Assembly (NCBI GenBank): GCA_036172245.1
Contig: JAYWIR010000033.1
Span: 558,001-622,000, forward strand
Reading direction: 5' to 3'
DNA length: 64,000 nt
Origin: Raillietiella orientalis
Lineage: Eukaryota
A program made the position numbers and the translations under genes. Positions 42,991 through 63,131 of this stretch are shown here, piece after piece (position 1 is the stretch's first letter; every line of letters begins with the position of its first letter). The notes under the pieces were generated by a model. That model saw only the letters and a program-made list of their open reading frames with translations. It ran no database searches and had not been told where the DNA came from.

Positions 42991-43229
42991 GCCTCATGTT
43001 CTGACTTTCCTTTCCTCAATCAGGAGCATCTCCCATAACAATCGTGAAACGACTCCACCAAACTCTTCAGCAACAAATACACCTAGACCTTCAAGTGGCA
43101 CTGCTTTAAATACTCCAGTCAATTCTACGATCGATAATTTCCTCCGAGAAATCCACTCACCCTCGATCAACCCTACTTCCCAACTTCTCTGAACAATTAC
43201 GTGCCCCAATTTCCCAACCTGAAAAGAAA

Positions 43230-43575
43230 GATGAACAATAGAAATCCTGAAGTCCAAATTGATCTCCCTCCTCTTATGCTTATGATGTCGTCCTAATAGC
43301 GAATTCTCCCCGCAATCTTGAAAATGCCCTCAACCACTTTGCTGCGGCTACCAGCATAGCCCGTTTCACCATCAACCCAAAAAATTGTGCCCCTTACCAT
43401 TTCGTTTCTTTTCTTGAAAGGTCCTACATCGGGTTTGACCCTCTTATCTATGACAGTGCATCGGTAAATTTGCCCTCAACTTTTAAATTATTCTGCAATC
43501 TCCTCAAGCGCTGTGGAAGAAGTTGGATGCCATCAAAACGTTTTTCATTCTCTCCCTCGTACACGACCTTCGTTT
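43230..43575 (+). pseudogene. Highly decayed RLE-type RT fragment
   Basis: AYDVVLIANSPRNLENAL..TINPKNCA and WKKLDAIKTF resemble the RT of 40318-41163. Confidence 0.55.
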
Positions 43576-43599
43576 AGGTAACAAGCAATTATCGGCAAA

Positions 43600-44150
43600 C
43601 CTTCTCGCCAATCTACGTCTCAGAAAGCGGCAACTGGAACTCTTCGACGCCAACAAAAAACCAGCAAACCAGAGAACCATATTCTAGTTTTACGACACAT
43701 TTGGCAACGCAGGAAAAACTACGATGGTCAAATATCTATAAAGCAAAAAAGGAACCATCTACATGCATTTCTGCCGAAAAGCTGGCGCAGCCCATATCTA
43801 CAATGGGGAACATCGTTGTCACGTGACACACACGTGTCTTCACACGTGACAACCAAGAACACGTACAATATGGCTTTGTAGAATCCCTCAAAAATGGGAT
43901 ATTCGACTCCAAATATCAAGGATCGATGAAGTACTTTGACGTTGGAAACACTCATATTTGCGAACTGGGAGTCCGACAACTCAAAAATGAGTGCTGACAG
44001 ACGGTTTGCAAAAAATATTGGCAGACGTGCAGATTCCCAAGATACGAGTTGGAAAATGAATGGAAAAGGATCCATTCTCCCATGGGCTTCAAGCCCTAGA
44101 ACAGAGCAAGTGCATGACACGCCTGACTTCTCTTGAGCACGCTTTCACCA
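43600..44150 (+). pseudogene. rep: CRESS virus Rep helicase half (decayed endogenous viral element)
   Basis: FYDTFGNAGKTT, IYMHFCRKAGAAHIYNG, VQYGFVESLKNGIFDSKYQG, KMSADR; homologous to 62537-63085. Confidence 0.85.
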
Positions 44151-44204
44151 ATTTCTTTGAGTGATTTCGCTAGCAGCGAAATCACTCAAAGAAATTTTTT
44201 ACTA

Positions 44205-44305
44205 CTAGTATATTGCTAAATCTCTGTTCTGATTGAACTCCAAATAAAACATTTGGGTTATTCTATATAGAGAGTAGCCTTTTGTTAAAGTACCCTCCTT
44301 TGGAA
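44205..44305 (-). pseudogene. cap: CRESS capsid C-terminal fragment converging on rep
   Basis: PKEGTLTKGYSLYRITQMFYLEFNQNRDLAIY* vs PKNGNLTKGYPIFRITTRYYIWFKHLRDVSLY* at the end of ORF 62232-62513. Confidence 0.75.
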
Positions 44306-44314
44306 CCGGTTGAT

Positions 44315-47300
44315 AGGAAAATAACTATTCTACTAACCTCAAAATATTAACCATTGACTACTGCCTGATGAAAATACACAAACATCTTGCGTTGCACTGA
44401 ATTTTGCATGAATTTCTTGTCACCACGTTCTACCTAATTTTCCAAATACATATTTCGAATATAATGTAGTAACACGTGATTCCTTCAAAAACAAAAACTA
44501 GAAAACTGCCACGTGACAAAAAAACTAAATAAATTTTAGAATCTGAAGTAACAGCCAGTTACTTGAACAGCAAGATTTTAATTCGCACTAGTTTCACGGG
44601 AAAATTCCGCGATTTGCAATAGCAACCGAAAGATGTGCCAACATGCTAGTAAGCCATAGATACACTGAACATTCACACATACTTTCCAACCCTGGGTGCA
44701 AGCCCAACCTTGGATGGACTTACCGAAGCAGTTAGCACCTTCAAACATGCCCACCCCTTATATGGGCTCTTTTCATATTAGAATACAATCAGGGCGTCAT
44801 GAAAGCATTGCCAATTCCAAGATCTTAACATGTACAGATGATCTCCTGATCATTACCAGAAATCCAAACGATCTGCTATCGGCCTTAGACCTGACTGGGG
44901 CACTCACAAAATTAATTGGTGTACTGCCAAACACAAATTAGCGTAACTAACTTCACTGCCAAGCGAAAACACCGACATATCTGGGAATGACTTTCTTCTC
45001 CATTTTCAAGAGCCTCAAGTGTTGCATTCGACTACCACACCATGCATAATTTTGCCGTGCACACAGTACACTGCAATACGATGCGTGGTACACATTACAC
45101 GTGAATCATGTGCATGATGTTTTCAGATGTCGTGATGCGGTTTTTCAATGATATAACTTATATTGAAGAGATGCATACATGCAGATACATTTGCATAGTG
45201 AGTTCACAAGATGACATGTTGGCAACCACCTAAAACATCCGAGTCCTCACAAGCTTAGATTGCACCTACGATTTGAAAAAGTCAACTCAACTCTCAGCAT
45301 GCAACGAAATTACTAACAGCTTACACGTTAGACAACACTAGTGCATCAACTGCAACCCTACTGTCACATTTGACAGAATTGGCCATCCAGACTTCCCTCT
45401 GGCTGAATGTACATTACAAAACAGTTCAGCAACATGCACAAGCATCCCATGCACATCTCATCAGCACAGCAGGCCCTGATGTAACAAAGCATGGCATGAA
45501 CAAAAACGTTGCAATTCTCAACACTTTCACAGCAGTGAAAGTCCAACAGCTCCACAATCTTTCTTTCTAGAATTTACATCTCCAAGTCTCACTGAATCAT
45601 CTCATTACAAGCAGAACATCCACACATTTTTTTGCCATCCATAAACTCTCCTGTCAACAATCGCCATCACAGTAAACGTGCAAAGTGGAACGGGACCAAG
45701 ATGCAGTTCTCAAAACTCTAGTAGGTCGCTCTTCCATTGCTTCTTGACGACGTTCTCGATTTCTGATGACTGAAGAAAAACAACAACGACATTGCAAGCG
45801 AGTGCTTCCGTTCAACTCCTTTCTTTGTTCTGCATCACTGCAAAAGAAATCACAAGCATTCCAGCACCTTTCCTTTTTCCGATTCTCACAGCAATTTTCA
45901 AAAAAGCAAAAATTAATTCCTTTACCGTAAAGTGCTCACTGCTAACAGCACCTTCCTTTTCCCATCGATCACATACTCCTCGAATGCACACATGCCTTGC
46001 AACCCGACCATTCCACCATCCACACTTTGAGCCACAGCATTTCTTCCCACGTTCCAAACCGAAACTGAACCGTGCAGCGCCACACCCACTTCAACCAGAA
46101 AGCGCAGCCGCCCCTTTCCCCTCTTCCCGCTCTTTAGCCTCTTCCTGTGCGCTTCAAGATGTGCATTTCGAGGAGAAACAGACAGCGTGGAGTTCGATCT
46201 CCCCAAGTCTTTTGGCAACAACAGCTTCCCTTGAAATTGCACCTTTCCACTCTTCACCACTCTTCAATGATCCTTTCGCAATGATTCCCTTACGTCTTCT
46301 CCATTGAAGACATTCCTCGGTTCTTCCACCCATGTCGGTGTTCTTTTGCAATCTGAGGTCTCCGAATGCACAAGAGGCTTCTCACATTCTCCTATCGTCA
46401 CTTTTACGATTTGTTTGGGAAGTGTTTCATCAGCGGGCGCACTTTTTCAAAAAGTACTGCACATGTCCACGAAAATGAATCGAGTTTTAGATTCTCTTAT
46501 ACACAGAAAAGCTGCTTTCCATCGTGAGGACGAAACCAAACCTCGCATGGAAAGGGAGAACCCTTTCCATGCTTGGCTTTTCAAGATTGAAAATTCGCCA
46601 GGGCCTGCAGGGAGATTCTTTCACGGAGCTTCCAAGGATATCAATTTCAATTCAGAACGGTGGTGGAGACAGAACAGCAATCGGTCACGTCGGAACGAAT
46701 ATCTCACTTGTCCTGATGGAAGCAACACCAGGAATGAATTTTAAACAAGTTTGTGTTTGATTAAATTAGGCATAAATTCTACGGATATAAGAACGAAGGA
46801 AGGAATCTTTGCATAAATTGATCATTCATTGGAACTGCCTATGTTGCCTCCGGGACATCAGCCTTCCTGACTTGATGAGAGGACGAAGGGAAGTGCCAAG
46901 CTGAACTGCGACAGATGCGGGAAATTTTTCGTTAGACTGCAACTGTTTCTCTTTCCATGAAATCGAGAAAACTGGTCAAGAAAATAGCATTCTTGTAACA
47001 ACCACTCCTTCTCCTCATCACACAAATTCTTTCGAGACCGATGACTTTGCGAATTATTGTTTTTTTCTAACCACTGACAATATTTTGCTTCCTAAATGCT
47101 GTGCAGCTCCTTTCACATGCAAGAAATTCATATTCTTTATTTTGCTCTCCATGTGCAAGAGCATTGGTTCCTCCAGAAAATTGGAAGGATAGCCCTTGGA
47201 TGGATGCTTCCCTTTCTTTATCAAAACTTGGAAAAGCCTTCTCAATGAATTCGGAGATCACCATCTCACCTGCTCTTCAAATCGCCTCGATTGGCCATTG

Positions 47301-48420
47301 CAAGCACCAGGATTCGTGCTTCCACCTTTCTTAGGTGTGGATGAATTTCAATTAAAACTCACATCACAAGTTGGTTTCTTGGAATACGTGTTTTCCCGAG
47401 CTTTCAGTAAGCCTGCATTTCTTCTCCCTAATTTCTCCCCAGAGTTACGTGAATAAAAGAGGATGCATAAGCCTTTCGTTTTCTGATTTGAGATTTTTAA
47501 TTGCATGATGTTCAGTGTAAGAAGTCAGCTCGAGTGAAGAAGCTTCGTGCAGCTCATCAGATTCCACCGAAACCGAGGAAACGTGCCGTCCGACACACGA
47601 GTACATTTTTGATAACCTGGTTATTAAATAGTCTTGTAATTTTGAACATCTGTTTCAAAGCCATCTTCAAAATCCGAACCCATGTATCCAACAGATTTTC
47701 TTTTCGAGCTGATTTTTGTGTACATTTTTGTGGAATCGTCATCTTTAGATTCCTAAAGGAGGATTTTCCTTTCGATCCAAAAACTTTCCTTATATCCATG
47801 CAGGGCAACCGCGGCTGCAGGTTATTGCGCAACTGTTTTCTTACAAAGTTCGGTTTGATCATCCTTTAGAATTTTCCAGTCCGAGGCATTGAGAAACTGT
47901 GCTGAAATTCCACACCAAAGGTGAATGCTGCAGTTCTGCACTCCTGCCGTTCAGCTAAACGATTTGAATGCTATTTTGGCACAATGCTTTTCTCCGACGC
48001 CAACCCACTTGCCTTTTGTTTTTCGAATGCACTGAGAATCAGCACGTCTTTGCTGTCCTGAGTATGTTGATGACCTGTCCTAAATCAAACAGTTGCATTT
48101 ACTGTTCACTATTCCAAATTTCAGGCAGCTGCAACGTTCGCACTGGGGAAGTGCTCTTGAATGCACTGGGTTGATTGATTGCCTAGTGTGCTGCCAGACT
48201 ATGATGTTTCCCACTTCCAAAAATTCGAAAATGGGGATTGTCTGCAATTTTCAGCTGCATAGGAGAAATCCAGTTGTAGCAATCGAGCAATCTTTGGTGC
48301 TTCAAAGCAGGAGTTGAGGGTTCCCTGGGAACATGTACATGTTTGCTGTCTAGCTGTGTTCGATCATATGCTGCCCCCTTAGTCAGTTTCTCACATTTGG
48401 CGTTCCCTCAACCTAAATGT
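44315..48420. repeat. Left arm of large diverged inverted repeat
   Basis: Reverse-complement blocks: 44315-44550/59480-59720; 44560-44970/58430-58850; 45140-46410/57290-58350; 46420-46930/56270-56745; 47490-48420/53345-54290. Paired ORFs MKTFLGSSTH.. and MVKSGKVQF.. occur on opposite strands. Confidence 0.9.
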
Positions 48421-48429
48421 GGTGAGCGG

Positions 48430-48665
48430 GTCTCGGATGAAGCACTCCACGGGAAGTTGTGACGACGAAGACTGCAAGGCATATATGTTTACATGCCGAT
48501 CGATAAGAGTCTTCATGTCTTGAGGTGTCCCACATTGCTCCGCGACTGACTGGCCCTGGAAAGCGTCATTGGGCTGACCACCACTTCAGTCATGAGAATT
48601 CAAGCAGGGATGTGCCATGAAAACGGGAGCGTTTTCTTCTACAATTCAATGACCCAACCACGCCG
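48430..48665 (+). mobile_element. Decayed family E LINE zinc-finger fragment
   Basis: TGTCCCACATTGCT..GACTGG..CTG.AAA..TCAT.GG.CT.ACCACC matches about 32230-32415. Confidence 0.65.
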
Positions 48666-49344
48666 ACCAAGAAGTATGTTTAGTACGAAACAATATGCAT
48701 CTGAATGTCTCTACTAAACAAGAAATATATATATATTAGTTGTCAGGGAGCACATGAATCAATTGATATTTACAAATGATAGGATACTGAAGGTGATTGG
48801 TTACTCAGATAATTGCCAGGGTGAGAGTGAATCCACATCTGGATCTGTATTGATTACTACGAGTCTTGCAATATGTAAGAGTTGTACTGTGAGTGTCATT
48901 TTCCATACATAGACCAGAAATTGCTGCTGCCATGCTGTCAACACTGGTGAGAGAAAGCACTGTGCCATAATACAAAAGAGGTGATGCAACATGAAGTGTT
49001 AAATTTTTTTCCATTGCAGTGAAGGTAGCAAGACGTGCACCAACGTTTGGAGGCCACATATCACAAAAATGCCACCATATCTTTTAGCCAACTCCGTATG
49101 TTTTTCTCCTTCATTTCAAGTGTCACAAAAATATGAAACTGTGATTAGTATTTTCGGTTTGACCAAAGACTGATTCCTGAATTTTGTGTGAACGCAAGGG
49201 ACATATATCACTACTTCACTTACAGTTAATCTGTAGTACTCACTTGGTGAGTACAGAAAGTGTAACATCCAATTAATACAAAATCATGTGCAACATACGG
49301 CAATCTCTCTTTCTCCAAAGCATTCCTCACCGTTAGACAGATTA

Positions 49345-49480
49345 CGCCTAATCCCCAGTATTCCATCTCACCAATCCTTTGGCCACCAAAATGTGTTTTT
49401 CCATTAAGAAGCTATTGAGTAATCAAACTATAAGTGCGAGTAGACCTTGCGTGAATTTTATTCCAAGTATGATTCCAAGA
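49345..49480 (-). pseudogene. rpoB: Bacterial RNA polymerase beta C-terminal fragment, Rickettsiales-like
   Basis: [37 protein letters not shown] vs consensus DKIHARS.GPYSL.TQQPLGGK..FGGQRFGEME. Confidence 0.85.
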
Positions 49481-49724
49481 CTTAATAGACTGTAGAATCG
49501 AAAGCTTTATACCCACAGCATTGTTTGCATACGGTGATACGCAACATGCCGCTGCTCCCCATAAATCATTAGGAAAAATGTGACACTACCTCTTCACCAA
49601 CCTTAATTACATCTCCAGCACGCATGCTCACCTATGATATGTGAATCTATCTTGATATAACGCTTAAGCCATGCAATAGCGTCTTTTGTTCTAGGAATTG
49701 GCATGTCCCTCCTCATCGCCTGTT

Positions 49725-49930
49725 ATATTCTGAACATCATCATATTTTCCAAAATATCCATAAGCTTGATCATAGTTTTCAACTTGTCTTCACTAAGTGA
49801 TATTTGCTCATTAGGCTTCCAAATTAACTTTGCAACAGATGCTGTTCTCAGTCCAGATTGTAACCTCCCTTTTGTACTATGAAAACCTGTATGGTCACAA
49901 AAAATCCCACACCCGATTTCATACAATGTA
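49725..49930 (-). pseudogene. yebC: YebC/PmpR family C-terminal fragment
   Basis: AKLIWKPNEQISLSEDKLKTMIKLMDILE then, after a frameshift, DDVQNI. Confidence 0.65.
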
Positions 49931-50364
49931 CAACCCAAGGCTCGAGCATCATGTGCGATCTGCAGCATTCTGTCTTGCACAGCTTTTGAAGCAAAGTTAT
50001 ACTATTTTTGTTCTCACAAAATTTAATGAACTTTGTGCCAACACAGAGACATCTCTGGAATTATTTGGCATATTTTCTGCTGACAATACACATTCTTCTG
50101 CAGCCGCCAGATCACCATTGTAAACATAAATATCTGCTAATTCTTGATTTGGCCTAAGAACTTGCTTTTTTACAGCTGCTCTGTAATTTTGCCAGCTCAT
50201 CAGATGCTTCGTACCCATTAAGACTCGATTCAATTATATGCAAAAGATCAGACCTAAAATTTGCACCGAGCTCGGGTCTTTCACGCAACTCCTTAAACTC
50301 TAACACAGTAAATCGATTATCAAATTCAATCGTATTGCTCCCACTGATAGCTATTGTATTTTTC

Positions 50365-50630
50365 TTTGTTGTTTCTCCTTGCTGGCTCAATGCTTAGTGA
50401 TACCTGTGATCAAACTTGCTTTCTGTTTCAGATGAATTCTTTGAATGCCATGTTTTTCGAATGTATTTAGCAATATTCTGTGTCATCAACACACCATTAC
50501 CAAGGCTGTGCGTTTCTGGTGTAATTTCAGCGTTATCTGAGATGTTTTCCTCTGCTCTATACAAGTTTTCTAGAATCCGAACTAGTTCTTTTGAAAAATT
50601 TGCAATAGCATGCTTTTTGGCAGCATCGAG
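50365..50630 (-). pseudogene. grpE: GrpE nucleotide exchange factor fragment
   Basis: AKKHAIANFSKELVRILENLYRAEENI..GVLMT / LLNTFEKHGIQRI / KFDHRYH*ALSQ. Confidence 0.8.
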
Positions 50631-50639
50631 CTAACGTAG

Positions 50640-50845
50640 AAGATTGCAAAGTGTTACATCATTATATTGAAATGCCTGAAAATTGGTTTGGATGTCTTGG
50701 AGTGATACTGGCAACTTTGAATTCATCAGTAGATTGAATGTTGCTGTTGCAAGTAAACAAGGTAGCTTAGCAGAGTTAATCGCTGAAATGAACAGTGACA
50801 TCACAAATGTGAAGGTAAAATCCAGATTACAAAACTTCTTCACAA
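50640..50845 (+). pseudogene. RelA/SpoT C-terminal ACT-domain fragment, alphaproteobacterial-like
   Basis: DCKVLHHYIEMPENW / SW..FISRLNVAVASKQGSLAELIAEMNSDITNVKVKSRLQNFF. Confidence 0.65.
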
Positions 50846-51250
50846 AGCAGCCGGAAAAGCATATACCTCTTTGGTGAGAGAATTTATAGTGAAGGCTTTA
50901 TAAGAGCAAAGATGATCTGTATGCTAAATGCTTTGTACTCAGAACCAGGTGAGCTTGAAGTTGATATAATTTTAATTAAAGAGTCAGCTGCAAACATGCT
51001 TTACAATGACATAAAAATGTTGTGCAATACCAGAGTACAGCACAGACTGGAATAAAGATGATTGTGATGCGTTTTATGAGCAACTTCTTGCAAATTCAGA
51101 AAAATGCAGGAAGTCTTGAAATCGTAGCAAATGATGGGATTCATTTTGGATCTGGTGTGCAGGTTGAGATTGCCAACTAGACTCAATAAAATTTGCTGCA
51201 TGCGCATATTTTATTCTCAAAAAGTATCATCAGTGTCAGGGTTTCACAGA

Positions 51251-51360
51251 ATGGCTATAGCAGTTTTGATGCCAGCTCTTTCTCCTACAACGAGTAAAGG
51301 AAATGTTGCAAAATGGATCAAAGAAGAAAGTGATTTGTTAGAACCAGGACAGATGATCCA
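51251..51360 (+). pseudogene. Pyruvate dehydrogenase lipoyl-domain N-terminus (PdhC/PdhB type)
   Basis: MAIAVLMPALSPTTSKGNVAKWIKEESDLLEPGQMI matches the MPALSPTM.EG.LAKW.K.EGD pattern. Confidence 0.75.
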
Positions 51361-51589
51361 AGACAAAGATATTGGAGGCTATTCTGGAGTCAACTTCAAT
51401 CTTCGATATGCCAGGAACAGGTCTAATAAGTCAGCTATGTACTATAGAAAAGGTTTTATTTAGGTTTCCTGATTATTTTCCTGACATCACTTCAAAATTC
51501 GAAGCTATCAGAATTGATCTGCAAGTGGTTAACCAAGCAGTTGAGCGCAAAAGATCAGAACTCATTATTAATGAAGATCTTCATTTGCG

Positions 51590-51845
51590 TATGCTTCAAT
51601 TACTACATATCTAAAAAGATCAACTATCTCTGCTATGCTGGATTGGTCTTGGAAGAATTTTCTAATTTCTGCAGTAGTAATTGGTCCAAGTCCATTAATG
51701 TTTATCAAACCTTCCTCATCTGAAGTTTTCACAGCAGAAAAAAAAGTTGTCAACGTCACCGTAGTGAGTGGAGAGTAACTTTGCAGCTGATTTTCCAACA
51801 CTTCCAATGACAAGTGAGTATATAAAGTTCCCTAGAGAAATGTTT
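51590..51845 (-). pseudogene. ligA: NAD-dependent DNA ligase HhH fragment
   Basis: ISLGNFIYSLVIGSVGKSAAKLL / EEGLININGLGPITTAEIRKFFQD. Confidence 0.72.
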
Positions 51846-52084
51846 CTTGACTTCTGATTCATCCTTGATCATCCACGTATCCTGAATAGCCGACCTAGAT
51901 TTATTGATAGATAAAAGTGAATGGATCACTATGTGCAACCACGCAGTTTGAAGAGAAATAAGATTTGCACCAAGATCTTCATACAGCGTAATGAATATAC
52001 ACGAATCACGTTTCTCAGGATGTCAAGCGTCCAATTCCTTATCGAAAAATAATTTGTATTGCAAGCAGGAGCAAACCTTAGCGA

Positions 52085-52315
52085 ATTACGCTTGCTGGGG
52101 TTTTAGGGGAGCTTATGTGGATTATATTGCCTGCATATCTATTTTCTAAAAGACTAGAAATAGAATCTACTTTGCGCGTAAGAACCATTTTTGCTATTTC
52201 TGCATTGCTAATTGCTCGCTTTTCTAATAAAAGCTTCTTAAGGAGAGCACTTAATACGAGTCTTGCAGTCTCATTCCATATTTTATGATTCTGGATGATC
52301 TGGAATCAAGCTATT
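52085..52315 (-). pseudogene. F-type conjugative coupling protein TraD-like fragment
   Basis: LIPDHP / IWNETARLVLSALLKKL..SNAEIAKMVL..SSLLEN..AGNII..SPKTPASV resembles the TraD LIP..FW..AR..KTA.S.R segment. Confidence 0.5.
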
Positions 52316-53344
52316 GTCTTAATGTGGGCTAAGTGGTCTCTTTCACTAAGGAGTCCCCGGTTCTCAGCTCGCATGTCAAACAGATGTCAAACATGTCAAT
52401 ATAATTCGAGAATCAAGGCATTATCTTGTAAAAACTCTCTACCACTCTTTGGATAGTTCAATGCATTCCATATAATTCCTATACCTGAAGAGCCAGGCAG
52501 AGCCTTCTTTAAAAGCTCCTGAAACTGCTATAAACTTTGTATGCGCCAAGATTATCCAAGTTTCGTGCAATCTCCCCTGAAAGCTTATGTCGCTTGAATA
52601 CGGATATAGTAAAGTAATAAAGTAGTAATAAAGTAGTTTCCAGGAATTTACTTTTTAAAACATTCTCATCTCTATGTAACAGGGGTCCTTGCTTTCCAGG
52701 TTTTGGTCCCCTCCAACATCTCTGAACTTTACATTGACATCTGTAAAAATCACTTGTAGAAATAGTTTTTAAAGTTGGGAACTATTCTTACCGCAGTTGG
52801 AAATTCATGCGACTAAAATCCTTCACATAAAGTGGCTGTAGAATGCAAATTCTGCAACACCATTTTCCTTGAACTATGCAACTGTAGCAGGTGACCGAAG
52901 TGTGGAAAACAAACCTTCACAGATGCCTAAGAGATTTAGCTTGGTTTGCGAATTGCCACTTTAATCTTTGATAACTTCTGAACAAGCCATTCAGAATATA
53001 TGTTGCATACATATGAAATCCTGCACATGGTCAGCAAACTATTATGCTTCTGCATGTGCTGCAGCAGTTCCCAAACACAAGAGAAAGCGTGCATCACCCA
53101 TTCTTACACCAAGCATTTGGAAGTTGTATCAATGAAAAACATGTTCCAGCAGAGACTTACAATTCTGCAATCGAATATCCAGGTTTTGGAATATGTGCAG
53201 CCTCCCACAAACCGAGCTTGCAAAACTGGGCTTTAGGAACTCAGAAGACATGGAATGCTTCTTTGGAAAACACATCACGTCTCAAACACTGAGAGCTTCG
53301 TGTACTCCTTTCAATCCATAGAGTGCGAACTTTAACTGAAAGCC

Positions 53345-56300
53345 AACACATTTAGGTTGTGGCAACGCCAATTGTGAGAAACTGATTAAGGGGGCAGCAT
53401 GTGATCTCACACTGCTAGACACCAAACGGGTACATGTTCCCAGGAAACCGTCAACTCCTGCTTGGAAACACCAAAGATTGCTCGATTACTACAACTGGAT
53501 TCCTCCTATGCAGCTGAAAATTGCATACAATCCCCATTTTCCGATTCCTGGAGGCGGGAAACACCATAACCTGGCAGCACACTAGGCAAGCAATCAACGT
53601 AGTGCACCCAAGAGCACTTCCCCATTGCAAACGTTGCAGCTGCCTGGATTTTGGAATAGTGAACAGTATATGCAACTGTTTCGTTTAGGATAGGTCATCA
53701 ACATACTCAGGACAGCAAAGACGTGCTAATTCTCAGTGCATTCGAAAAACAAAAGACAAGTGAGTTGGCGTCGGAGAAAAGCATTCTGCCAAAATAGCAT
53801 TCAAATGGTTTAGCTGAACGGCAGGAGTGCAGAAGTGCAGTTTCCTCTGCAGCATTCATCTGTGGTTTGGTTTTTCGATGCCTCGGACTCGAAAATTCTA
53901 AGGGATGATGAAACGGAACTTTGGATGAAAACAGTTGCTCAATAACGCGGAGCTGCCGTCGCCCTCCGCGGATGTGAGAAGAGTTTTCGGATCCAAAGGA
54001 AAATCCTCATTTAGGAATCTCAAGGCGACGATTTCACAAGAATTCACACAAAAGTTAGCTTGAAAAGAAAATCTGTTGGATACATAGGTTCAGATTTTCA
54101 AGATGGCTTTGAAACATGCTCAAAATAACAACACCATTTAATAACCAGATTTTCAAAAATGTACTCACTTGTGTGTCGGACGGCACGTTTCCTCGGTTTC
54201 GGTGGAATCTGATGAGCTGCACGAAGCTTCTTCACTCGAGCTGACTTCTTACACTGAACATCATGCAATTCAAAAATTGAATTCTGAATTCAAAAAAAGA
54301 AAAAGCTGTTTGTCGATGATTGTTTCGCGTACGCTTGAGCACGTGCAGCATTTGAATAGTGAAGGGTAGTTTGGATTCGGATATTTTTCGTTTGTCTTCG
54401 GAAGAACAGCAATGATATCGATGAGAGGTTACCCGTTTACTGGATAGTCACTATATGTAATACATGTGGTGATTTCTTGTCTTGGTAATCCTGTTTTCTA
54501 CTGTAGCCACTTGAAGGCAGGTGAGTCCATTCAAAAGAGCAAGTGATTCTCCAGTGTTCTGAGATGCACTGTTCCTGAATGGTTTGGGAAGAAACACAAT
54601 AGGCATGTGGTGCCACAATTTGGGAAAGTAATGAGCACATCATAGCTAAAGCACTTTGGAAAGTTGATTTGCATCTATTATGCAGTGGATGGGTCTACTT
54701 TAGTTCATGGATTTCACACTGGTGACACAGCAAGAACAAAGAGCATTTCTTGCATGTGAAAGGTTTGAAACCCTCCAGCTGCACAGCATTTAGGAAGCAA
54801 AATATTCTCAGTGGTGAGAAACCAATAATAACTCGCAAAGTTATCGGTCTGAACAGAATTGCTGCGATGAGGAGGAGAGGTTGCTACATGAATGCCAGTT
54901 TTTGTGACCAGTGTTCTGGATTCCAAGGAAAGAGAAACGGCAGAAGATGGAAGGCATTGGTTCCAGGGGGTTCTGTAAACTGGAACACTATCATCTTGGC
55001 TATGCTGAAGATGCAGGAGCATCAAAGGTTGCTGACGTACGTTCAGGCAGGAAAAGGGAGAAGTTTTCAGGCTAAGGATAGGAATGTTAAAATGATTAGC
55101 GTAGATGACATCTGAGAAACGATTAGGAATGAACAAAAGCATTGGGCTGGAACTGCAAATAATGGTTTGATTTCCACTGTACATGTAGCATGTGCTTTGG
55201 GGGTAATAGGAAAGATGTGAGGCTCGGTGTAATCAAGCTCACCCTCAAGAAAAAAGCTAGAATGCTTCTAGCAAGCTGCGAGTCATTTTAGCAATGTGGA
55301 AACACAAGGTGAGCAGTTCAGTCTTTCAATGTGGGTAGACAAGTATAGGCCTACCAGCAACTTGGAAATGGTAGGACAGCAGAGTCTGTTAATAAGCTTC
55401 ATACATGGCTCCAAAATTGGCAGAATAGGCGGCTTGCCCACAGATCTCTCCATGCATGCAAGCAGGTCTTAAGGTGGTTTGGTTGCAATTCCATTCAAAA
55501 GTTTTTAGGTGTAGTTGCAAATAGTGCTGATGCAGCATACTTTAAAGCAATCACACATCCTGACCCTCTATGCATAGGTTGATCAATCTTTCACCTGGCC
55601 AAGTATCATGTCCTTCTGATTAGGGCAAGCACTGCTACACTGACTGAATGTTACAAATGCAAGGTTAAAGCATCCTTCGCAAGCAGAGGAAGCACCTATT
55701 CTTAGACATCAGATTTTACTGTTGCAGTCCAAAGAAAAAAGTTATTTTGTTATGATCATGGATGAAGTGAGTAAGTTGGAAAAGTAAGTTTCTTTGCTCT
55801 TATGGGTCCATTTAGCAGCACAGAGTGCTTGCAGACCAAAATGTTTGCTGGAAAACTATCAGCAGGAAAGAAGAATCAGGGAAGAAGAAAACTCAAGCAT
55901 TGAAGGAAACGGCTCTCTTTTGTAATTGTTTCCGAAGTTTGTGTTTCCACGTGCTGCACAAGAGGAAATGCTCCCTTGTTGCATGGAATTCCTTGTGTCC
56001 CAGCATCCCAAGAAAGGGGGTGCCTCTTATGCAGGGAAGAATCGTTCAGGAGAACGGAGGGAGGAGCGCAAATCCCTGCACAGTTGGGTCCTTCGCATTC
56101 CTTGCAATATGCTGGCGAGGTCCTCTGCATGACTTTCCAAGTGGAAGCACCTCGAGCCCACCTGTAAGATCCCGATGTGGAAATGAGTGACTGCTGCTGT
56201 GGAGTCCAAAGCAAGGGGGAAGGTTCCCCGGAGAGGAAGAGAGTGCACTAGAAGGTGCACGAATTATTCGATTTTCCAGCATGTGGCGCCGTTTGGTTTG

Positions 56301-59300
56301 GCGCTCCCCTGCGTCCTTTATAGCAAGGCTGATGTCCTGGAGGCAACATAGGCAGTTCCAAGGAACAGTCTCTTTTTGCTAGGATTCCTTCCCTAATTCC
56401 TCTACCCGCAGAATGTATGCCCAATTCAATCACACACGAACTTGTTTCAAACTGATTCCTGGTGTTGAGATATTCGTTCCGACGTGCTCGGCTGCTGCTC
56501 TCTCTGCACCACTGTTCCATGATTTGAATTTCACATCCATGGAAGCTTCGTGAAATAATCTGCTTGCAGACCCTGCCGAGCATGAATTCTTGAAAAGCCA
56601 AGCGTGGAATAGGGAGAAGGTTTGGTTTCGTGCTTACGATGGAAAGCAGCCTTTCTGCGTATAAGAGAGCCTAAAACTCGATTCATTTTCGTGTACATGT
56701 GCAGTGTTTTTTGAAAAAGTACGTCCACTGATAAAACACTTCGCATGATTCCAATTCTTTTTCGTACAATAGTCGTTACCTAGAAACTAATAGTCATCTA
56801 TACGCGAACACTTCAATGCTAGACAGTGGATCTTTAGAAGGGAGTGGGCATTGACGAGTCCACTGGGACGCACCTTCAGAATCATAAGAAGTGTTCAGAA
56901 AACTTTCTGGAAGGTACTCCGTTTCGGATAGCGGAGGATCGAAATGCACCAACGGCCATGATGGAGACATTGGTTTCAGTCGACGCGACTCCAATGAGCC
57001 ACGTTTGGGAAATATGATCCATTCCAGGAGTCGGCATGATCCCTAGCCGCGTGGCTGAGCCACACCAAGTATGAGAAATGCCAAGTTGTCATTGTAATAC
57101 TACAAATGGGAAAGATTCCGCGATGCCATGGGCATCACTTGAAGAACGACGAATTCGGAAAGACGATTGCTGAATGTGCAGTGTCGGCTTTGTGGTGGCT
57201 TTGAAGATTCTCGTGGGAACAACGGTTGAACAACGCGGCATGCAAGACGAGCCGTTTGTGGCCGGAAAGTGTGGAAAGCAGAGGCCACAAATCGTAAAAC
57301 TGACGATAGGAGAACGTGAGAAGCCTCTTGTGCATTCGTAGGAGACCTCAGATTGCAAAAGAACACCGACATGAGTGGAAGAACCGAGGAATGTCTTCAA
57401 TGGAGAAGACGTAGGGAAATCATTGCGAAAGGATCATTGAAGAGTGGTGAAGAGTGGAAAGGTGCAATTTGAAGGTAAGCTGTTGTTGGCAAAAGACTTG
57501 GTGAGATCAAACTCCGCGCTGTCTGTTCCACCTCGAAATGCACATCTTGAAGCGCACGGGAAGAGGCCGAAGAGCGGGAAGAGCGGTAGAGGGCGGCTGC
57601 GCTTTCCGGTGGAAGTGGGCGTGGCGCTGCACGGTTGTGTTTCCGTTTGGAAGAAATGCTGTGGCTCAAAGTGTGTATGGTGGAATGGTCAGGTGGCAAG
57701 GCATGTAGGCATTCGAGGAGTATGTGATCGCTGGGAAAAGGAAAATGCCGTTAGCAGTGAGCACTTTACGGTAAAGGAATTAATTTTTTGCTGTTTTGGA
57801 AATTGCTGCAAGAATCGCGAAAAAGAAAAGTGCTGGAATGCTTGTGATTTCTTTTGCAGTGATGGGGATCAAAGAAAGGAGTTCACTTGCAATGCTGCTG
57901 TTTTTTTTTTTTTCACTCATGAGAAATCGAGAATCGTCAAGAAGCAATGGAAGGGCGACCAACTAGAGTTTAGAGAACTGCATTTGTCCCGTTTGTTCCT
58001 CCTTGCACGTTTACTGTGACGGCGATTGTTCACAGGAATGCTCATGAATGAGAAAAGGGTGTGTTGATGTTCTGATTCTTGTGGTGAGATGACTTGGGAT
58101 GTTATGAGTTTTAGCAGGAAAGGTTTTGGAACTGTTGGACTTGCACTGCTGACAAAGTGTTGAGGTTTGCAACGTTTCTGTTCATGCCATGCTTTTTGAC
58201 AGCAGGGCCTGCTGAGAGTAGAGTTGACTTTTTCAAATTGTAGGTGCAATCTAAGGTTGTGAGCACTCAGCTGTGCAGGTGGTTGACAACGTGTTGTTTT
58301 GTGAAGTTACCATGCAAATGTAACCTCATGCAGGTATCTCTCCGATATGAGTTATATCATTGAGAAGAAGTTGATATGCAAAGATACTCGTATGTGAAAG
58401 CATCTCACAATAAGTCGTTCCTGGAGATGTTGTTTTCTCTTGGCGGTAAAGTTAGTTACACTAATTTGTTTAGCAGTATGCCAAGGCATTTTGCGAGTGC
58501 CCCTGTCAGGTCTGAGGCTGATGGCAGATCGTTCGGATTTCTGGTTACAATCACGAGATCGTCTGCAGATGCTAAGACCTTGGGATTGGCAATGCTTTTC
58601 TGATGCCCTGTCATAGTGATTGGATCCCAATATGAAAAGAGCTTATATAAGGGGTGGACGTGTTTGGGGGTTGTAATCTCCTGGGTAAGTCCATCGAAGG
58701 TTGGGCTTGCACCCAGGGTTCGAAAGTATGTGTAAATGGTATGGTTGACATCGTTCAGTGTATCCATGGCTAACTGGCATGTTTGCACATCTTTTGTTTG
58801 TGATTGCAAATCGCGCAATTTTCCCTTGAAACTAGTTTGAAATGGAATCTTGCTGTTCAGGTATGGATGAGGAAATTTCGAGATGAGTATCATCACCTGT
58901 AGATTGGAGTGTGATGTAAGGAGATGGTCTGCTTGTGGGATGAGAGTAGTTCTTGCAGAAGTGGGAGTTGGTGCAGTTTGTTGACTTGTAGCAAGTGGCA
59001 TGCTTGCTCTCTGGCGGATGAGGAATGTGAATTTGTGAGGATGTTCTTGGAGAGATCCCATTATTTGAGAGATTTGACAAAGGAACTACAGAATGGTACT
59101 TCATGTCTAAAGGGCTAAAGAAGATGTCCTGTTTGAGATTTGATTGCCAAGGTTCTTACTTGATTTGGTACTTTCGATTAGCATCTCATCTGATCCCATC
59201 CACAGTCGACTTTGCTCCCAGGATGGAGTGTTTCAGTCTGGGAGTTTCGTACTGTGGATTCTGGGAATGCTAACCCTTTCCAGATAAGACGCGAGTAATA

Positions 59301-59720
59301 GGTAGTCCTTTGCTCCGAGCTTGTGCAATAAGTTTATCATGTATCTGAACATCATTGTTTTATTATGACATCTGCCTGGAAATACCAAAGCTTATGTGGT
59401 GTTCTGCAAGGTGCTTCAGAGTTTATAGTCCTTCATGAAGTGCATAGATAAAGGGATTCAAACAATTTGTTGCAGAGTTTTTTTACTTCAGATTCTAGAG
59501 TTCATTTCATTTTTTTGGCACATGGCAATTTCTTAACCTTAGTTTTTAAAGGAATAACGTGTGACCCCATTATATTTGAAACATGTATTTGTAAAATAAG
59601 GTAGAACGTGGTGACAAAAAATTCATGCAAAATTCAGTGCAACGCAAAATATTTGTGTATTTTCATGAGACAGTAGTGAATGGTTAATATTTTGAGGTCA
59701 GTAAAATGGTTATTTTCCTG
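53345..59720. repeat. Right arm of large inverted repeat (with extra internal blocks)
   Basis: Reverse complement of 44315-48420 in collinear blocks; contains unpaired segments such as about 54950-56250 and 56750-57290. Confidence 0.9.
54770..55775 (+). pseudogene. RFC1: Replication factor C large subunit-like remnant with short apparent introns
   Basis: AAQHLGSK; VFVTSVLDSKERETAED; EDAGASK; KMISVDDI (BRCT); WVDKYRPTSNLEMVGQQ; NKLHTWLQNW; MIMDE followed by GTGAGT. Partial mirror copy at about 46940-47140 (-). Confidence 0.7.
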
Positions 59721-60768
59721 GTTTTCCATTTTATGGTCCCCAAAATGTTTCAGTGCATTTTCATAAAGTCAAATATGGGAAAGAAATGAAATACCAAGCC
59801 AATTTAGATTGAATTCTTCGAAGTTTGGGAAAGTGGGAAATTCTCTTATTGTGGAGAGTTTGTTCTTTCTGGAATAGGAAGGCCCTGCAAAGTGGAAAGT
59901 AGGGTTATGGATAGTATTTAAACAGCAAATACAAATAGATAAGAGGAAAACACAATAAGGTTAACAACGCAATGGGAAACTAAATTGCTTATTTGACTCT
60001 ACAGACTGGGCACTAATGTGTTCTGTGATGAAAATGTGAAAAAGAGTGGTGATGTTTTGTGATTTACTTTTGTCATTCTAGTATTCGTCTTGAGGTAATC
60101 TGAAATGCAGCGAGTTTATTATTATGAAAACTGACTGCAATGTTTTGTAGATGTCAAAGCAAAGAAAGTTCTTGGAAATTCTAATATGGAATTGCTGATA
60201 TGGAGACTGCCTTTTCAGTTTGAAAGTTAAATTTTCCTTGTTCAAATTGATAAGAGAAGTAACGCAGTTTTCCAGACTTGCATCTTTCAGTTTGGGCGTT
60301 TCTGCTGTGGTATTCGTTTGGAGTGGAATGTCATGCATTGAAGTGTACTGTGATATTGTTGCATGAAAAAATTCCAAAATGCAACTATTTACTCATTGCT
60401 GATTGTTGTTTAAATTATTCTCATGGCAATTATGATGATAGAAAGTCTGCAGTTATTCAATGTTTGAAGCTAAATCAAAATCTTTGGATCTTTAACATGA
60501 TGTGTTATGAATCTTGATTTATAATTTCAACTTTTTTGAGGTTTGTGACAGATGTTGCACTGAAAGTTGACTGTGCATAAATTTCCATACAGCAAAGGCA
60601 AGATTTTTTCTTCTTGTTTTTGCTAATCGGTATGCTTGGAATCAGAAGTTCCGAAATATGTTGCCTACCCATCTTACTGAACTGCAAATTGTTTTCTTGA
60701 AAAGCATTTGTTAGTATCCTGGAGTTAATTTGGGGTGAGGGCCAAGTCATCATTATGAATGTGGTGAG

Positions 60769-61286
60769 GGGGTTGGGGTGTGCTCTGCTTCGTGTAAGGC
60801 GGAGGCATTCTTTTACAAAATTTATGTTTTTACTATAAAATTTGGTGTGGTTGTTGAGTATGAAGAGTTCGTCGGCGCCATCTTTTATGAGTTGGAGTAT
60901 CTAGCGGGTAGATGATTTTCGATGTTTTTGTTAAAAATTTTAGGCTTACCAGGTCTTGGTAGTCCTGAGGCTCGTTGGCTTCGTGTAGTTTGCCGAATAT
61001 CTAAGCTTGTTTATCTTCCTTTGTGCAGTACCGTAAGTTGCTCTGCGGACTGCCTCCAGCTTTTTCAAGATGACTTTTTTGGAAAGTTTTTCTTTTTAAT
61101 CCTGGTAGTGTTCGAGGTTCTTTTAGTTGGAAGAATCCTTGAAGGTGTGGTGTTCGGGTTTTTGCGATCTCTGCCTATGCATGCGAAGAGGCAGTTAAGT
61201 CGGCACCGGTTCATGATTTCTTTTAAGTCGTCTTCGGTGAAGTTGCACAGGGTAAAGCACCAGTTGAAGAAGAGTGCGTAAGGCAT
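60769..61286 (-). pseudogene. rep: Rep HUH endonuclease half
   Basis: Motif I WCFTLCN, motif II TPHLQGF, motif III NLRYCTKE (frameshifted); ends ECLRLTRSRAHPNP. Confidence 0.88.
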
Positions 61287-61337
61287 CTTGAAATTCACTG
61301 TAAGTGCGACTTGTTTGTGGTTGTCTGCGTGTTGGTA

Positions 61338-61343
61338 TTTATA
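61338..61343 (-). promoter_or_regulatory. Candidate TATA box for rep
   Basis: TATAAA on the minus strand about 50 nt upstream of the rep ATG, next to the origin. Confidence 0.45.
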
Positions 61344-61362
61344 CTGCGTAACTGCGCAGAAG

Positions 61363-61397
61363 ATGCAATCTGGTAAATAGTATTACCCAGATTGCAT
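61363..61397 (+). other. Rolling-circle origin stem-loop with nonanucleotide TAGTATTAC
   Basis: ATGCAATCTGG-TAAATAGTATTAC-CCAGATTGCAT: perfect 11-bp stem, nonamer at 61378-61386. Confidence 0.93.
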
Positions 61398-61643
61398 TTC
61401 GCTGACAACGCAAAACCTTGGGAAATTCGTTATGTTGTAATAGATATGTTGGGTGGCTGGTCTTTGTCCGCAATCGTGGAAGACTTTGGAATGCGGAACA
61501 AGCTGTTGCTGTCCACGTGGGAAGTGCGTGGGCGTGATCCGACCTCGTGGAAGGCTGATAAAGTCGGATGGGCGTGCCCACCAGCCAGACTTAAAAAGGG
61601 AGGGGGGTTAGTGTAGGTCGCCAGTACGCTGTCAATCAGCAGA

Positions 61644-62513
61644 ATGGCGTAAGCTCGCGCTGTTCGTTCTAGAAAACGAAAGCGTGTAGTATCTTCTGGT
61701 TATGTAAAGCGTCGTCGTTGGAATGTCCGTCGTCGTAAATGGAGGCGTTTGCGTGGTTCACGTTATCGTTTAGTGAGAACAACGCGTGTAGTTGTGAGGG
61801 ACCAAACGCAGGGTGCCACGCATTATTCGTCTTTGAGGACTGCCGACGGGGATGCAGTAAATTGTTCTTGGATGTTTTGTTATTTGGAGGATGAACCTTA
61901 TGTGAAAGACTTGTTGAGGAATCGTAATTTGGAGCAATTCGCAAGATATAGGTACATGCGGGTAAAAGGCTTGTCTGTAAAGATAGAGCCCTTATCTTTG
62001 GGCTTAACAATTGGCAACATGGGTGAAGAGTTCGGATGAAAGTTTCGTATCGAAATATGTTGTATCAAAGTCATAAGCAGGGCGAGACTTTTGGAAGTTT
62101 AACTGGAATGCCTTATAGCAGGGTGGAAGATGTTATTGCTGGTCATGTCGAAACTTCTGGTTGTTTTGATCGTTATTTCGGTGTACGTGGATTGAGGTTT
62201 TACTCCATAGCATATATCCGGGATACGCTGTTTGAGGAAGGAGGAAACTTGTACAGATTTCGGCGTTTCCCTTGGATTGATTGTTGGCAAGATTGATTCT
62301 TTGGATCCGGAAACTTCCTGTCGTGTGTGTTTCCATAGGATGCATGTATTGAAGCATATGTCAGGTGTGGATATACCTGATGAATTGAAGGAAGCTTGTC
62401 AGTCTGGTGTATGTCCCAAGAATGGAAACCTGACCAAAGGCTATCCGATATTCAGAATAACCACAAGATACTATATATGGTTTAAGCATCTGAGAGATGT
62501 TAGTTTATATTAA
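61644..62513 (+). pseudogene. cap: CRESS capsid protein (stop at codon 3, two frameshifts)
   Basis: Arg-rich N-terminus RSRKRKR..KRRRWNVRRRKWRRLRGSRYR; FARYRYMRVKGLSVKIEP strand; about 290 codons. Confidence 0.8.
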
Positions 62514-62536
62514 ATGAATGAATTGCAAAGAGCTAT

Positions 62537-63131
62537 TTACGAATCTTGGTTTATTTCATCAAAAAATGGGGAAATGGGTGACAATGAGGAATCAGGCGAG
62601 TCGCGGGCTTGCGCTGTACTAGGGCTTGAAGTGCAAGCCCAAGGGAGAATGGTTTCATCATGGATCATCATCATCCAATCGGTTAATTTACTGGAACTAG
62701 ATGTGGATATATCTCTGACAACCCATCTATCAGAACTCATCTTATCATAGTTGGGTTCACAATTACTGAAAACCATATGTGGTGGCTGGAAGTATTTTAT
62801 AGAGCCTTGATACTTGGAATCGAATATAATGCCATTTTTTAGACTCTCTATGAAGCCGTATTTCACGTGTTCCATGTTGTCCTTGGTGAGGTCGACTACA
62901 ATGATCCTTTCCCCGTTGTATATGTGAGCGGCGTCAGCTGTTTTGCAAGAGTGCATGTATATTGCTCCCTTTTTAAGATGTAGGAATGTGGCCATAGTTG
63001 TTCTGCCAATTTCTCCGATTGGGTCAAAGAACCAATGGATCTTGCGGTTGTCTGGATTATGACGTATGAGTTTGAGGATATCCATTTGCCCTGTTCGAAG
63101 TTGATGATTGGCGATGGGGTTGGGGTGTGCT
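62537..63131 (-). pseudogene. rep: Rep SF3 helicase half (nanovirus/alphasatellite-like motifs)
   Basis: WFFDPIGEIGRTT (Walker A, K to R), IIVVDLTK (Walker B), YGFIESLKNG, DSKY, VFSN (motif C), KMSSDRW. Confidence 0.88.

Follow-up and report, generated by a model that had tools for sequence, protein, structure and literature searches.

Bacterial gene pieces, two of them Lariskella-like, at the centre of an inverted repeat in Raillietiella orientalis: a probable nuclear fossil

How pieces of unrelated bacterial genes came to lie between the arms of a host repeat is the question raised by a region of Raillietiella orientalis contig JAYWIR010000033.1, of which a stretch of 64,000 nucleotides (hereafter, the window) has been analysed. 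The patchwork has a eukaryotic host context: of 90 long upstream ORFs, 11 carry LINE endonuclease or RT domains, a eukaryotic LSU rRNA fragment is present in the window, and around the bacterial block the window shows the arms of the host repeat, a LINE scrap as well as LINEs, and this rRNA fragment. The region, a repeat graveyard, is plainly insertion-tolerant. Its low-GC core is best explained, with better than even confidence on our part, as the nuclear fossil of a Rickettsiales endosymbiont akin to Lariskella, whose DNA would have been shredded, end-joined, and left to decay neutrally.

The patchwork lies in a spacer (48425-53343) that forms the 4,919-bp centre of an old inverted repeat. 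The initial annotation had placed the fragments inside such a repeat, and it proved to be real: 24 collinear inverted pairs with 73–95% complementarity were found, the innermost ending at 48424 on the left and starting at 53344 on the right, and gapped blastn of the arms gave eight collinear HSPs (43717-48424 versus 63002-53344; 3,948 nt, mean identity 81%). The likeness between the two arms is 81–86%, and insertions near 54.9-56.3 kb and 59.7-62.6 kb have made the right arm longer than the left. The features are listed in Table 1.

Table 1. Features of the spacer and of the arms that enclose it; positions are those of the window.
Feature	Position	Strand	Description	Evidence
Left arm of inverted repeat	43717..48424		Host repeat, GC 0.39-0.46	Inverted-pair search, blastn
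LINE scrap	48425..48613	+	69% identity over 189 nt to 32196-32376, within LINE ORF 31347-32633	
Low-GC stretch without family match	48614..49348		GC 0.37-0.41	Pfam and NCBIfam scans
rpoB piece	49349..49462	-	38 codons, 1 in-frame stop; profile positions 996-1033 of 1096	
dapE-like 28-aa ORF (doubtful)	49510..49593	-		NCBIfam NF009557 alone, E 0.0032
yebC piece	49724..50001	-	Residues 142-234 of 248; N-terminal 141 residues missing	
F-type TraC-like piece (tentative)	50220..50342	-	Profile positions 593-633 of 800	TIGR02746, E 0.0013
grpE piece	50349..50636	-	Residues 83-180 of 203; start may be residue 74 (50663)	
spoT/relA C-terminal (ACT-region) piece (tentative)	50686..50814	+	Profile positions 613-655 of 702	NF008303, E 7.4e-4
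Pyruvate dehydrogenase E2 N-terminal lipoyl-domain piece	51251..51364	+	Profile positions 1-38; starts at own ATG	
ligA helix-hairpin-helix piece	51634..51856	-	Profile positions ~495-570 of 664; one frameshift	
traD (type IV coupling protein) piece	51858..52380	-	Residues ~237-419 of 638	
Stretch without family match, up to right arm	52381..53343		GC 0.34-0.46	Pfam and NCBIfam scans
Right arm of inverted repeat	53344..63002			Inverted-pair search, blastn

In the Pfam scan of the spacer, 12 of 98 stop-to-stop ORFs showed some family at E ≤ 0.05, and three families (YebC, GrpE, and TrwB/TraD) reached Pfam's own cut-off. NCBIfam models matched 9 of 87 ORFs at E ≤ 0.01, the families being rpoB, dapE, yebC, TraC_F, grpE, spoT, the PDH E1b/E2 N-terminus, ligA, and TraD_F. 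When the six frames were read through with stops taken as X, NCBIfam matches appeared in four of the six frames of the spacer and in none of the six frames of either flank of equal length (43516-48429 on the left, 53344-58257 on the right). Pfam gave no match at E ≤ 0.001 for any of 106 ORFs of at least 62 aa in the repeat arms and the right flank. The pseudogenised bacterial pieces sit in the low-GC block of the spacer (GC 0.34–0.41); those matched span about 114–520 bp, and none is complete, each being internal or terminal-only. The bacterial patchwork extends over approximately 3–4.5 kb. About 1.7 kb of the low-GC block match no family in Pfam or NCBIfam; the stretch between the LINE scrap and the rpoB piece is possibly of bacterial origin, and an Atlas search with an ORF on its minus strand (48808-49083) gave no usable match.

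Most of the gene fragments named in the initial annotation (rpoB, yebC, grpE, PDH lipoyl domain, ligA, and traD) were recovered by profile or tblastn searches. For yebC, Pfam and NCBIfam agree, and tblastn with a full-length relative (P0001) gave 62 identical residues of 86 (E 9e-37); there is one frameshift near 49742, with the DDVQN motif running on in another frame. The two libraries agree also on grpE, for which tblastn with full-length P0007 gave 61 identical residues of 103 (E 2e-30); this piece carries two in-frame stops and one garbled stretch, and its match stops exactly past ...NTIA. The rpoB piece is recognised by NF001616 (E 4.3e-13 with stops read as X), has a blastn match to a Neisseria chromosome at 49362-49459, and shows 66% identity to rpoB in a metagenomic locus (L052). 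The lipoyl-domain piece, matched by NF008854 (E 1.5e-8) and TIGR01349 (E 8.7e-7) and recovered again in the read-through scan, comes from E2 or, alternatively, from a lipoyl-bearing E1 beta. In the ligA piece (NF005932, E 2.1e-5), one ORF matches the first half of Pfam HHH_2 (positions 2-28) and another, in a different frame, carries on with the second (28-61); phmmer against PDB gave no match. The traD piece is spread over three frames by two frameshifts, with up to three stops; it was found by TrwB_AAD_bind in Pfam (29 bits), by TIGR02759 TraD_Ftype in NCBIfam (E 2.9e-5), and by tblastn with full-length relatives P0019 and P0016 (E about 1e-17 to 3e-18), and an 11-bp tandem duplication (52373-52393) is located at its break.

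The relA/spoT fragment fared less well: an NCBIfam match exists, weak at E 7e-4, and PDB searches gave no support for the spoT-like, traC-like, or dapE-like pieces. The NCBIfam E-values for these three apply to a single protein; over the 87 proteins scanned, the chance matches expected are ~0.06 for spoT, ~0.1 for traC, and ~0.3 for dapE; by their profile matches, the first two are tentatively identified, and the dapE-like match, near chance level for 87 ORFs, is doubtful. The LINE scrap of the initial annotation is confirmed by its likeness to a LINE ORF of the window, and it begins exactly where the left arm ends internally.

Candidatus Lariskella belongs to the Midichloriaceae, Rickettsiales, and is a symbiont of insects and nematodes. 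It is to this lineage that the relatives found for two of the pieces belong, in keeping with the Rickettsiales-like origin proposed initially. In two word-index searches over few candidates (28 and 24), the sole relative found for the yebC piece was YebC of Candidatus Lariskella (72% identity), and the sole cluster found for grpE was GrpE of three Lariskella records (59–62%). Of 80 metagenomic YebC loci, 44 match the yebC piece, none of them with an identity above 38%. The pieces are of bacterial origin rather than host or mitochondrial; ligA and traD are bacterial-only families with no known eukaryotic counterpart. Among 1.84 billion representatives searched, the best relatives of the traD piece are unnamed metagenome proteins only 35–41% identical to it, and plasmid records gave no match; judging from these identities, traD may have come from another donor or a mobile element. 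The GC content of Lariskella genomes is given as 0.35 in the available text of PMC13289439, as compared to 0.34–0.41 in the spacer block.

The pieces have decayed. Six stops in 504 aligned codons suggest ~0.085 substitutions per site since transfer (95% CI 0.03–0.19), a level close to that by which the two arms have diverged, and frameshifts are present in the yebC, ligA, and traD pieces. Stops, frameshifts, and truncation of this sort would not be expected of a live bacterial contaminant. Another DNA run (X1) yielded small contigs of depth 2–6 over parts of both arms and of the spacer, with similar depth over the two; 10 of 12 are at least 95% identical to the window, although they may represent paralogous copies instead of the same locus. 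One of them covers the frameshifted part of traD (51924-52191) gap-free, and others in the spacer cover 48878-49043, 52444-52629, and 52815-52965; none of the X1 contigs was shown to bridge two gene pieces or a bacterial/host junction.

The way in which the pieces meet is informative about how they were assembled. At two junctions they abut within ~1–6 bp, the traD piece ending at 51858 and ligA starting at 51856, and the grpE piece ending at 50349 and the TraC-like piece starting by 50342, with the frame continuing across; no host DNA separates the pieces at either of these placeable junctions, and the remaining ones are placed to no better than ~50–250 bp. Such abutment favours unrelated fragments joined end to end, as in "complex" numt/nupt insertions, and agrees with the end-to-end joining suggested in the initial annotation. 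The patchwork is probably the trace of symbiont DNA that entered the host chromosome long ago. According to the proposed scheme, lysed symbionts would have released DNA that reached the host nucleus as fragments of ~0.1–0.7 kb; end-joining repair would have ligated them end to end in mixed orientation, together with a host LINE scrap, and the concatemer would have served to close a broken chromosome where repeats abound. This may have been the very break behind the flanking inverted duplication, so that the insertion and the origin of the inverted repeat would be linked. We infer a single insertion event by end joining, of pieces that would be non-collinear in the donor; since then, the insert would have undergone neutral decay with no function.

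It might be supposed instead that a whole donor stretch of 10–20 kb was inserted contiguously and that later deletions left gene islands, which we consider unlikely. Seven of the nine matched pieces do lie on one strand, with only the spoT and pdhC pieces on the other, and the gap between spoT-3′ and pdhC-5′ (~440 bp, 50814 to 51251) could be a native gene boundary; counting an unverified extension of spoT to ~51055, the gap shrinks to ~195 bp, and the two could form one contiguous donor piece. The insert is also old, at ~0.085 substitutions per site, so there was time enough for deletions. However, at least eight deletions of ~0.5–4 kb each would be needed within 3 kb of sequence that survives, each taking a gene boundary, and after two of them unrelated genes would have to lie 1–6 bp apart. 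The donor stretch would further have to interleave traC-like and traD conjugation genes with four housekeeping genes, while the filler also includes a host LINE scrap. As a proxy for gene neighbourhood, and a weak test given the distance of the bacteria, 80 metagenomic yebC loci were inspected: rpoB was found within 10 kb of yebC in one, which is compatible with a contiguous donor, whereas grpE and traD were found in the flanks of none. Serial insertion of separate fragments, perhaps from more than one donor, that arrived one after another over time in a single fragile or tolerant locus would account for the contrast between traD (relatives at 35–41%) and yebC or grpE (72% and 59–62%), and a repeat graveyard tolerates insertions. 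Yet host sequence is lacking between the pieces at both placeable junctions, GC is uniform (0.35–0.41) over 48.6-53.0 kb, and no piece is obviously young and intact, the stops and frameshifts being distributed among them; we hold serial insertion to be quite improbable.

A misjoining of reads of a bacterium in the sample into the host contig deserves consideration in a repeat-rich window that is hard to assemble, the more so as no read was seen spanning a host-bacterial junction among the X1 contigs. Reads of a live symbiont would, however, yield intact genes and not truncated and frameshifted pieces with stops, about nine unrelated pieces of 0.1–0.5 kb in 3 kb do not resemble a misassembly, and run X1 has several pieces with the same defects at a low depth equal to that of the arms, so that such an artefact appears the least credible of the explanations. 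Scarcely more credible is a functional small-RNA locus resembling a piRNA or hairpin-RNA cluster, where transcripts of the inverted repeat and of its centre would be processed to small RNAs. We give equally little credence to its extension, a small-RNA trap archiving symbiont DNA and transposon scraps as a heritable record against, or regulating, the Lariskella-like symbiont. What speaks for it is the layout alone, with mixed-orientation foreign and transposon fragments between long inverted arms in a transposon graveyard. Against it, arms only 81–86% alike are poor for a long hairpin, and host small RNAs would, on general reasoning, not obviously be directed at bacterial transcripts inside a symbiont; among the papers listed in a literature search on bacterial DNA, lateral gene transfer, and endosymbionts, none contained the term "piRNA cluster". 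The "archive of foreign DNA samples" envisaged in the initial annotation thus found no support, and no feature of the sequence calls for a function.

A fossil of end-joined symbiont DNA has known counterparts. In the portions of the literature available, nuclear Wolbachia transfers (nuwts) and other transfers from Rickettsiales to hosts have been described (PMC4046930, PMC12693587, PMC3849323), as has a near-complete Rickettsia africae chromosome within a tick genome (10.64898/2026.09.16.751987). Like nuwts, which according to these texts can outlast the infection as "genomic fossils", the patchwork would represent pseudogenised DNA of a maternally inherited Rickettsiales symbiont in a host chromosome amid repeats. 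Unlike them, it has a donor closest to Ca. Lariskella (Midichloriaceae), neither Wolbachia nor Rickettsia, and is small (~3–4.5 kb), with many very short pieces. Simple, complex, and mosaic numt/nupt insertions were defined in PMC6215612, whose available text also reports NHEJ signatures. The patchwork resembles the complex and mosaic classes in that several fragments appear joined directly before or during integration at a break, and differs from them in its bacterial symbiont source and the co-inserted host LINE scrap; non-contiguity in the donor, moreover, is here deduced. A rickettsial region with 16S rRNA, murB, ddlB, and ftsQ in near-native synteny is described for the nuclear genome of Volvox carteri (PMC4324946, as far as its available text goes). 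Both loci hold a few kb of rickettsial remnants amid host-specific repeats, and Volvox may lack the symbiont, whereas the pieces considered here are far shorter, adjoin one another, and belong to genes without a functional relation. Finally, F-type conjugation genes are typical of the Rickettsiales amplified genetic element, RAGE (PMC10732058, available text). The traD piece fits the F-type TraD model (E 2.9e-5) and the TraC-like piece fits F-type TraC weakly (E 1.3e-3); unlike RAGE, there are two short pieces only, one of them tentative, and the best TraD relatives reach 35–41%.

The patchwork would belong to a known kind of transfer, from a donor lineage for which no earlier report was found. 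Judged by the titles listed, papers on Lariskella and horizontal gene transfer include no report of a Lariskella-to-host transfer; in the available text of the 2026 Lariskella genome paper, "host genome" is absent, and "integrat" and "horizontal" do not refer to host integration. If the favoured explanation is true, the symbionts that have contributed DNA to host chromosomes include, besides Wolbachia and Rickettsia, a member of the Midichloriaceae near Lariskella, and the patchwork marks an old infection of the host lineage; screens for the symbiont by PCR or metagenomics could also pick it up as a false positive. Located precisely in the middle of an inverted duplication of about the same age, the closely joined pieces of unrelated genes and the LINE scrap would offer a compact natural example of bacterial DNA serving as break-repair filler. 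If donor mapping confirms the shredding, it would parallel complex numts and nupts and could be used for studying how symbiont DNA enters nuclei.

The spacer at the centre of the old inverted repeat (48425–53343) carries short, pseudogenised remnants of bacterial genes, and the patchwork proposed for it in the initial annotation is borne out by family matches in both Pfam and NCBIfam. The curated Pfam cut-off is reached in the spacer for YebC, GrpE, and TrwB/TraD, and consecutive halves of the HHH_2 domain are matched by two spacer ORFs in different frames. NCBIfam matches at E ≤ 0.01 were obtained for 9 of the 87 spacer ORFs, the families being rpoB, yebC, grpE, the N-terminus of PDH E1b/E2, ligA, and F-type TraD, with weak matches to spoT (E 0.00074), F-type TraC (0.0013), and dapE (0.0032). 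Since these E-values are per protein and, with 87 ORFs, roughly one match at 0.01 would arise by chance, dapE is taken as doubtful and traC and spoT as tentative. The pieces rpoB, yebC, grpE, PDH, ligA, and traD stand as originally named, while relA/spoT is tentative and lacks PDB support. A phmmer search of PDB gave nothing meaningful for 50000–50233 (−), both ligA ORFs, the spoT ORF, or the traC ORF, and Atlas returned no usable match for ORF 48808–49083 (−).

When read through in six frames, the spacer gives NCBIfam matches in four of six frames, and equal-length flanks give none in six on each side. The identified pieces occupy 49349–52380, and the surrounding low-GC block (0.34–0.41) extends over ~48.6–53.2 kb, with ~1.7 kb of it unmatched. 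The PDH piece begins at its own ATG, and the yebC piece continues past a frameshift to a DDVQN motif. The LINE scrap, likewise predicted from the sequence, was recovered and starts precisely where the left arm stops on its inner side. In blastn against plasmid records, the spacer matched only at the conserved stretch of rpoB, and the record concerned is a Neisseria chromosome placed among the plasmids.

Features of the spacer and its surroundings (window positions)
Feature	Position	Strand	Details
LINE endonuclease/reverse-transcriptase domains	~11.8–14.7, 17.9–18.9, 23.3–24.2, 27.3–31.1, 34.8–35.3, 40.3–41.2 kb	both	
Decayed eukaryotic LSU rRNA fragment	42481–43012	−	model positions 1906–2346 of 3401; 80.6 bits
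Inverted arms, gapped blastn	43717–48424 vs 63002–53344		8 collinear HSPs; 3,948 nt; mean identity 81%
LINE scrap	48425–48613		69% identical to 32196–32376, inside a LINE ORF of the window
rpoB piece	49349–49462		NCBIfam match rises to E 4.3e-13 when stops are read as X
DDVQN motif of yebC	49724–49741		
yebC piece	50001–49744		residues 142–227; 62/86 identical to full-length relative
grpE piece	50636–50349		residues 83–180 of 203; 61/103 identical to full-length relative; 2 in-frame stops
traD piece	52380–51858		residues ~237–419 of 638 of full-length relative; three frames
Tandem duplication, 11 bp, perfect	52373–52393		ATGTCAAACAG x1.9
Direct repeat pairs, 133 and 177 nt	60770–61120 and 63655–63998		71–72% identical; ~2.88 kb apart
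X1 contig cover in spacer	48878–49043, 51388–51574, 51924–52191, 52444–52629, 52815–52965		

For two pieces, the only relatives found belong to Candidatus Lariskella, a Rickettsiales symbiont of the Midichloriaceae. In a word-index search of longer proteins, the single relative of the yebC piece among 28 candidates was the YebC protein recorded for ‘Candidatus Lariskella endosymbiont of H...’, with 72% identity across 93% of the query. The grpE piece drew a single cluster out of 24 candidates, and the GrpE proteins named in it come from L. arthropodorum and from the Ca. Lariskella of Epinotia ramella and of Hedychridium. When metagenomes were scanned with the Lariskella YebC, 80 loci were retained, each at most 57% identical to the query; the yebC piece itself matches 44 of them at no more than 38%, far under its 72% to Lariskella, and a single scan of genome contigs with this decayed piece gave only a spirochaete yebC at 38%. 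Judged by composition, the GC of the spacer block fits the 35% reported for the 1.5 Mb Lariskella genomes (PMC13289439). The proteins WP_339041605 and WP_339040481 are encoded by one complete Ca. Lariskella genome of 1.59 Mb, and WP_339051962 and WP_339052446 by a second.

The exception to this closeness is traD. It has no relative among 305 candidates in the word-index search of longer proteins and no tblastn match in plasmids; among 1.84 billion representatives, four matches were found, three of them true TraD proteins at 35–41% identity. The fourth, P0017, a repetitive Chironomus riparius protein of 1,240 aa, was rejected as a chance match without a TraD domain; it had scored E 1.5e-7 in phmmer against the 75-aa traD piece via six repeated stretches, a case of phmmer scores inflated by repeats. 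To our knowledge, ligA and traD are families confined to bacteria, and the reading as a numt or host gene was rejected on this restriction together with the 72% identity of yebC to Lariskella.

Unrelated genes meet directly, without any spacer, at no fewer than two junctions: the grpE match stops right after ‘...NTIA’ at 50349, where the same reading frame continues directly into traC-like text, and traD ends at 51858 while ligA starts at 51856. The perfect 11-bp tandem duplication lies exactly where traD homology stops and may be a trace left by the joining.

It is probable that DNA fragments of a Lariskella-like symbiont and the LINE scrap were strung together by their ends; they would have filled a break in the chromosome and decayed after insertion. 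The case for such shredding rests on evidence internal to the spacer, since every piece is short and comes from the interior or an end of its gene and unrelated pieces abut, since conjugation-gene pieces interleave with housekeeping ones, and since a host LINE scrap is part of the same filler. A single contiguous insertion that later decayed is unlikely. If the putative spoT piece runs via a frameshift to the C-terminus, spoT-3′, ~195 bp, and pdhC-5′ could form one native donor fragment of ~0.7 kb. As a weak proxy for gene order in bacteria, the metagenomic scan (80 loci, 808,162 bases including flanks) shows rpoB in the flank of one yebC locus; full-length queries found grpE and traD in none of these flanks, again as a weak proxy, and short queries of little power found ligA, PDH, spoT, and traC in none. 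When the spacer was compared with these loci by tblastx, rpoB and yebC were matched and nothing further. Somewhat less likely still are successive insertions into a tolerant site, with more than one donor possibly involved. It is very improbable that the locus is an ‘archive’ of foreign DNA samples, as had been suggested at first, that yields small RNAs.

Misassembly is given even less credence than the archive. X1, a separate DNA run, contains 12% of the sampled words of the stretch and yields 12 contigs of 151–268 nt on 46–55 kb (two at ≥99% identity, eight at 95–99%, one at 90–95%, and one below 90%). Their depth of 2–6 is alike over arms and spacer, and the contig at 51924–52191 spans the frameshifted traD without gaps, which shows that decayed pieces occur independently of this assembly, at a depth like that of nuclear DNA. 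Half of the bins (15/30), including 49.3–51.1 kb, are without X1 cover, which is uninformative at such low depth, and none among the contigs listed bridges a junction. The X1 contigs may be paralogous copies of the locus.

The arms themselves comprise 24 collinear inverted pairs in a repeat search, the innermost ending at 48424 and beginning at 53344, and their innermost 0.95 kb are 86.5% identical in gapped blastn. No Pfam-recognisable ORF was found in the arms among 106 scanned, nor any tandem repeat of note, and the first 42 kb of the window hold no further copy of them. The repeat underlying the arms is strand-asymmetric, C-rich on one strand. Their GC skew forms a strong mirror image, reaching −0.27 on the left (44000–48400) and +0.29 on the right (53300–63000). 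Two direct repeat pairs, located in the right arm's outer end and just past it, may mark both ends of an inserted element or reflect a tandem duplication.

Six stops in 504 codons of aligned frames, two of them in a short traD segment of uncertain frame, correspond to ~0.085 substitutions per site (95% CI 0.03–0.19), taking account of the number of single changes able to make a stop in those codons. The arms differ by 13.5–19%, i.e., ~0.07–0.10 per arm, and the inverted duplication is therefore comparable in age to the insertion; this agrees with one repair event without proving one.

GC is 0.52–0.64 over the first 43 kb versus 0.36–0.48 over the last 21 kb. Of the 90 upstream ORFs of at least 150 aa, 11 encode LINE endonuclease or reverse-transcriptase domains, and these domains, together with the decayed eukaryotic LSU rRNA piece, mark the setting as eukaryotic chromosomal DNA rich in repeats. 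In Atlas, one of the LINE reverse transcriptases has eukaryotic clusters of mixed phyla as its neighbours. Positions 1–42000 are a graveyard of GC-rich non-LTR retrotransposons on both strands, and the rRNA fragment marks the exact meeting point of this field with the GC-poor repeat region; a LINE that targets rDNA could have brought it there as a scrap, or it could be one more fragment that was captured. Rfam (E ≤ 0.1) shows no piece of bacterial rRNA or other RNA over 42–64 kb, and no tRNAs were found in the window.

Nuclear Wolbachia transfers and their fossils are known from the available passages of earlier reports (PMC4046930, PMC12693587, PMC3849323), as are a near-complete Rickettsia africae chromosome in a tick (preprint 10.64898/2026.09.16.751987, in part) and a rickettsial region in Volvox. 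Identity of the spacer with the Volvox insert was rejected, since the genes and arrangement in the accessible text differ (PMC4324946). Complex and mosaic numts and nupts joined by NHEJ have also been described, and, as far as the available text goes, their likeness to the spacer is one of architecture (PMC6215612). A text search of the open-access literature found no report of Lariskella or Midichloriaceae transfer to a host, which is not proof of absence, and the 2026 Lariskella genome paper contains no relevant passage on such transfer. This kind of finding, symbiont DNA in a host nucleus, is already known; the Lariskella-like donor lineage appears to be new, and the same holds for a patchwork of such fine grain in the middle of a palindrome.
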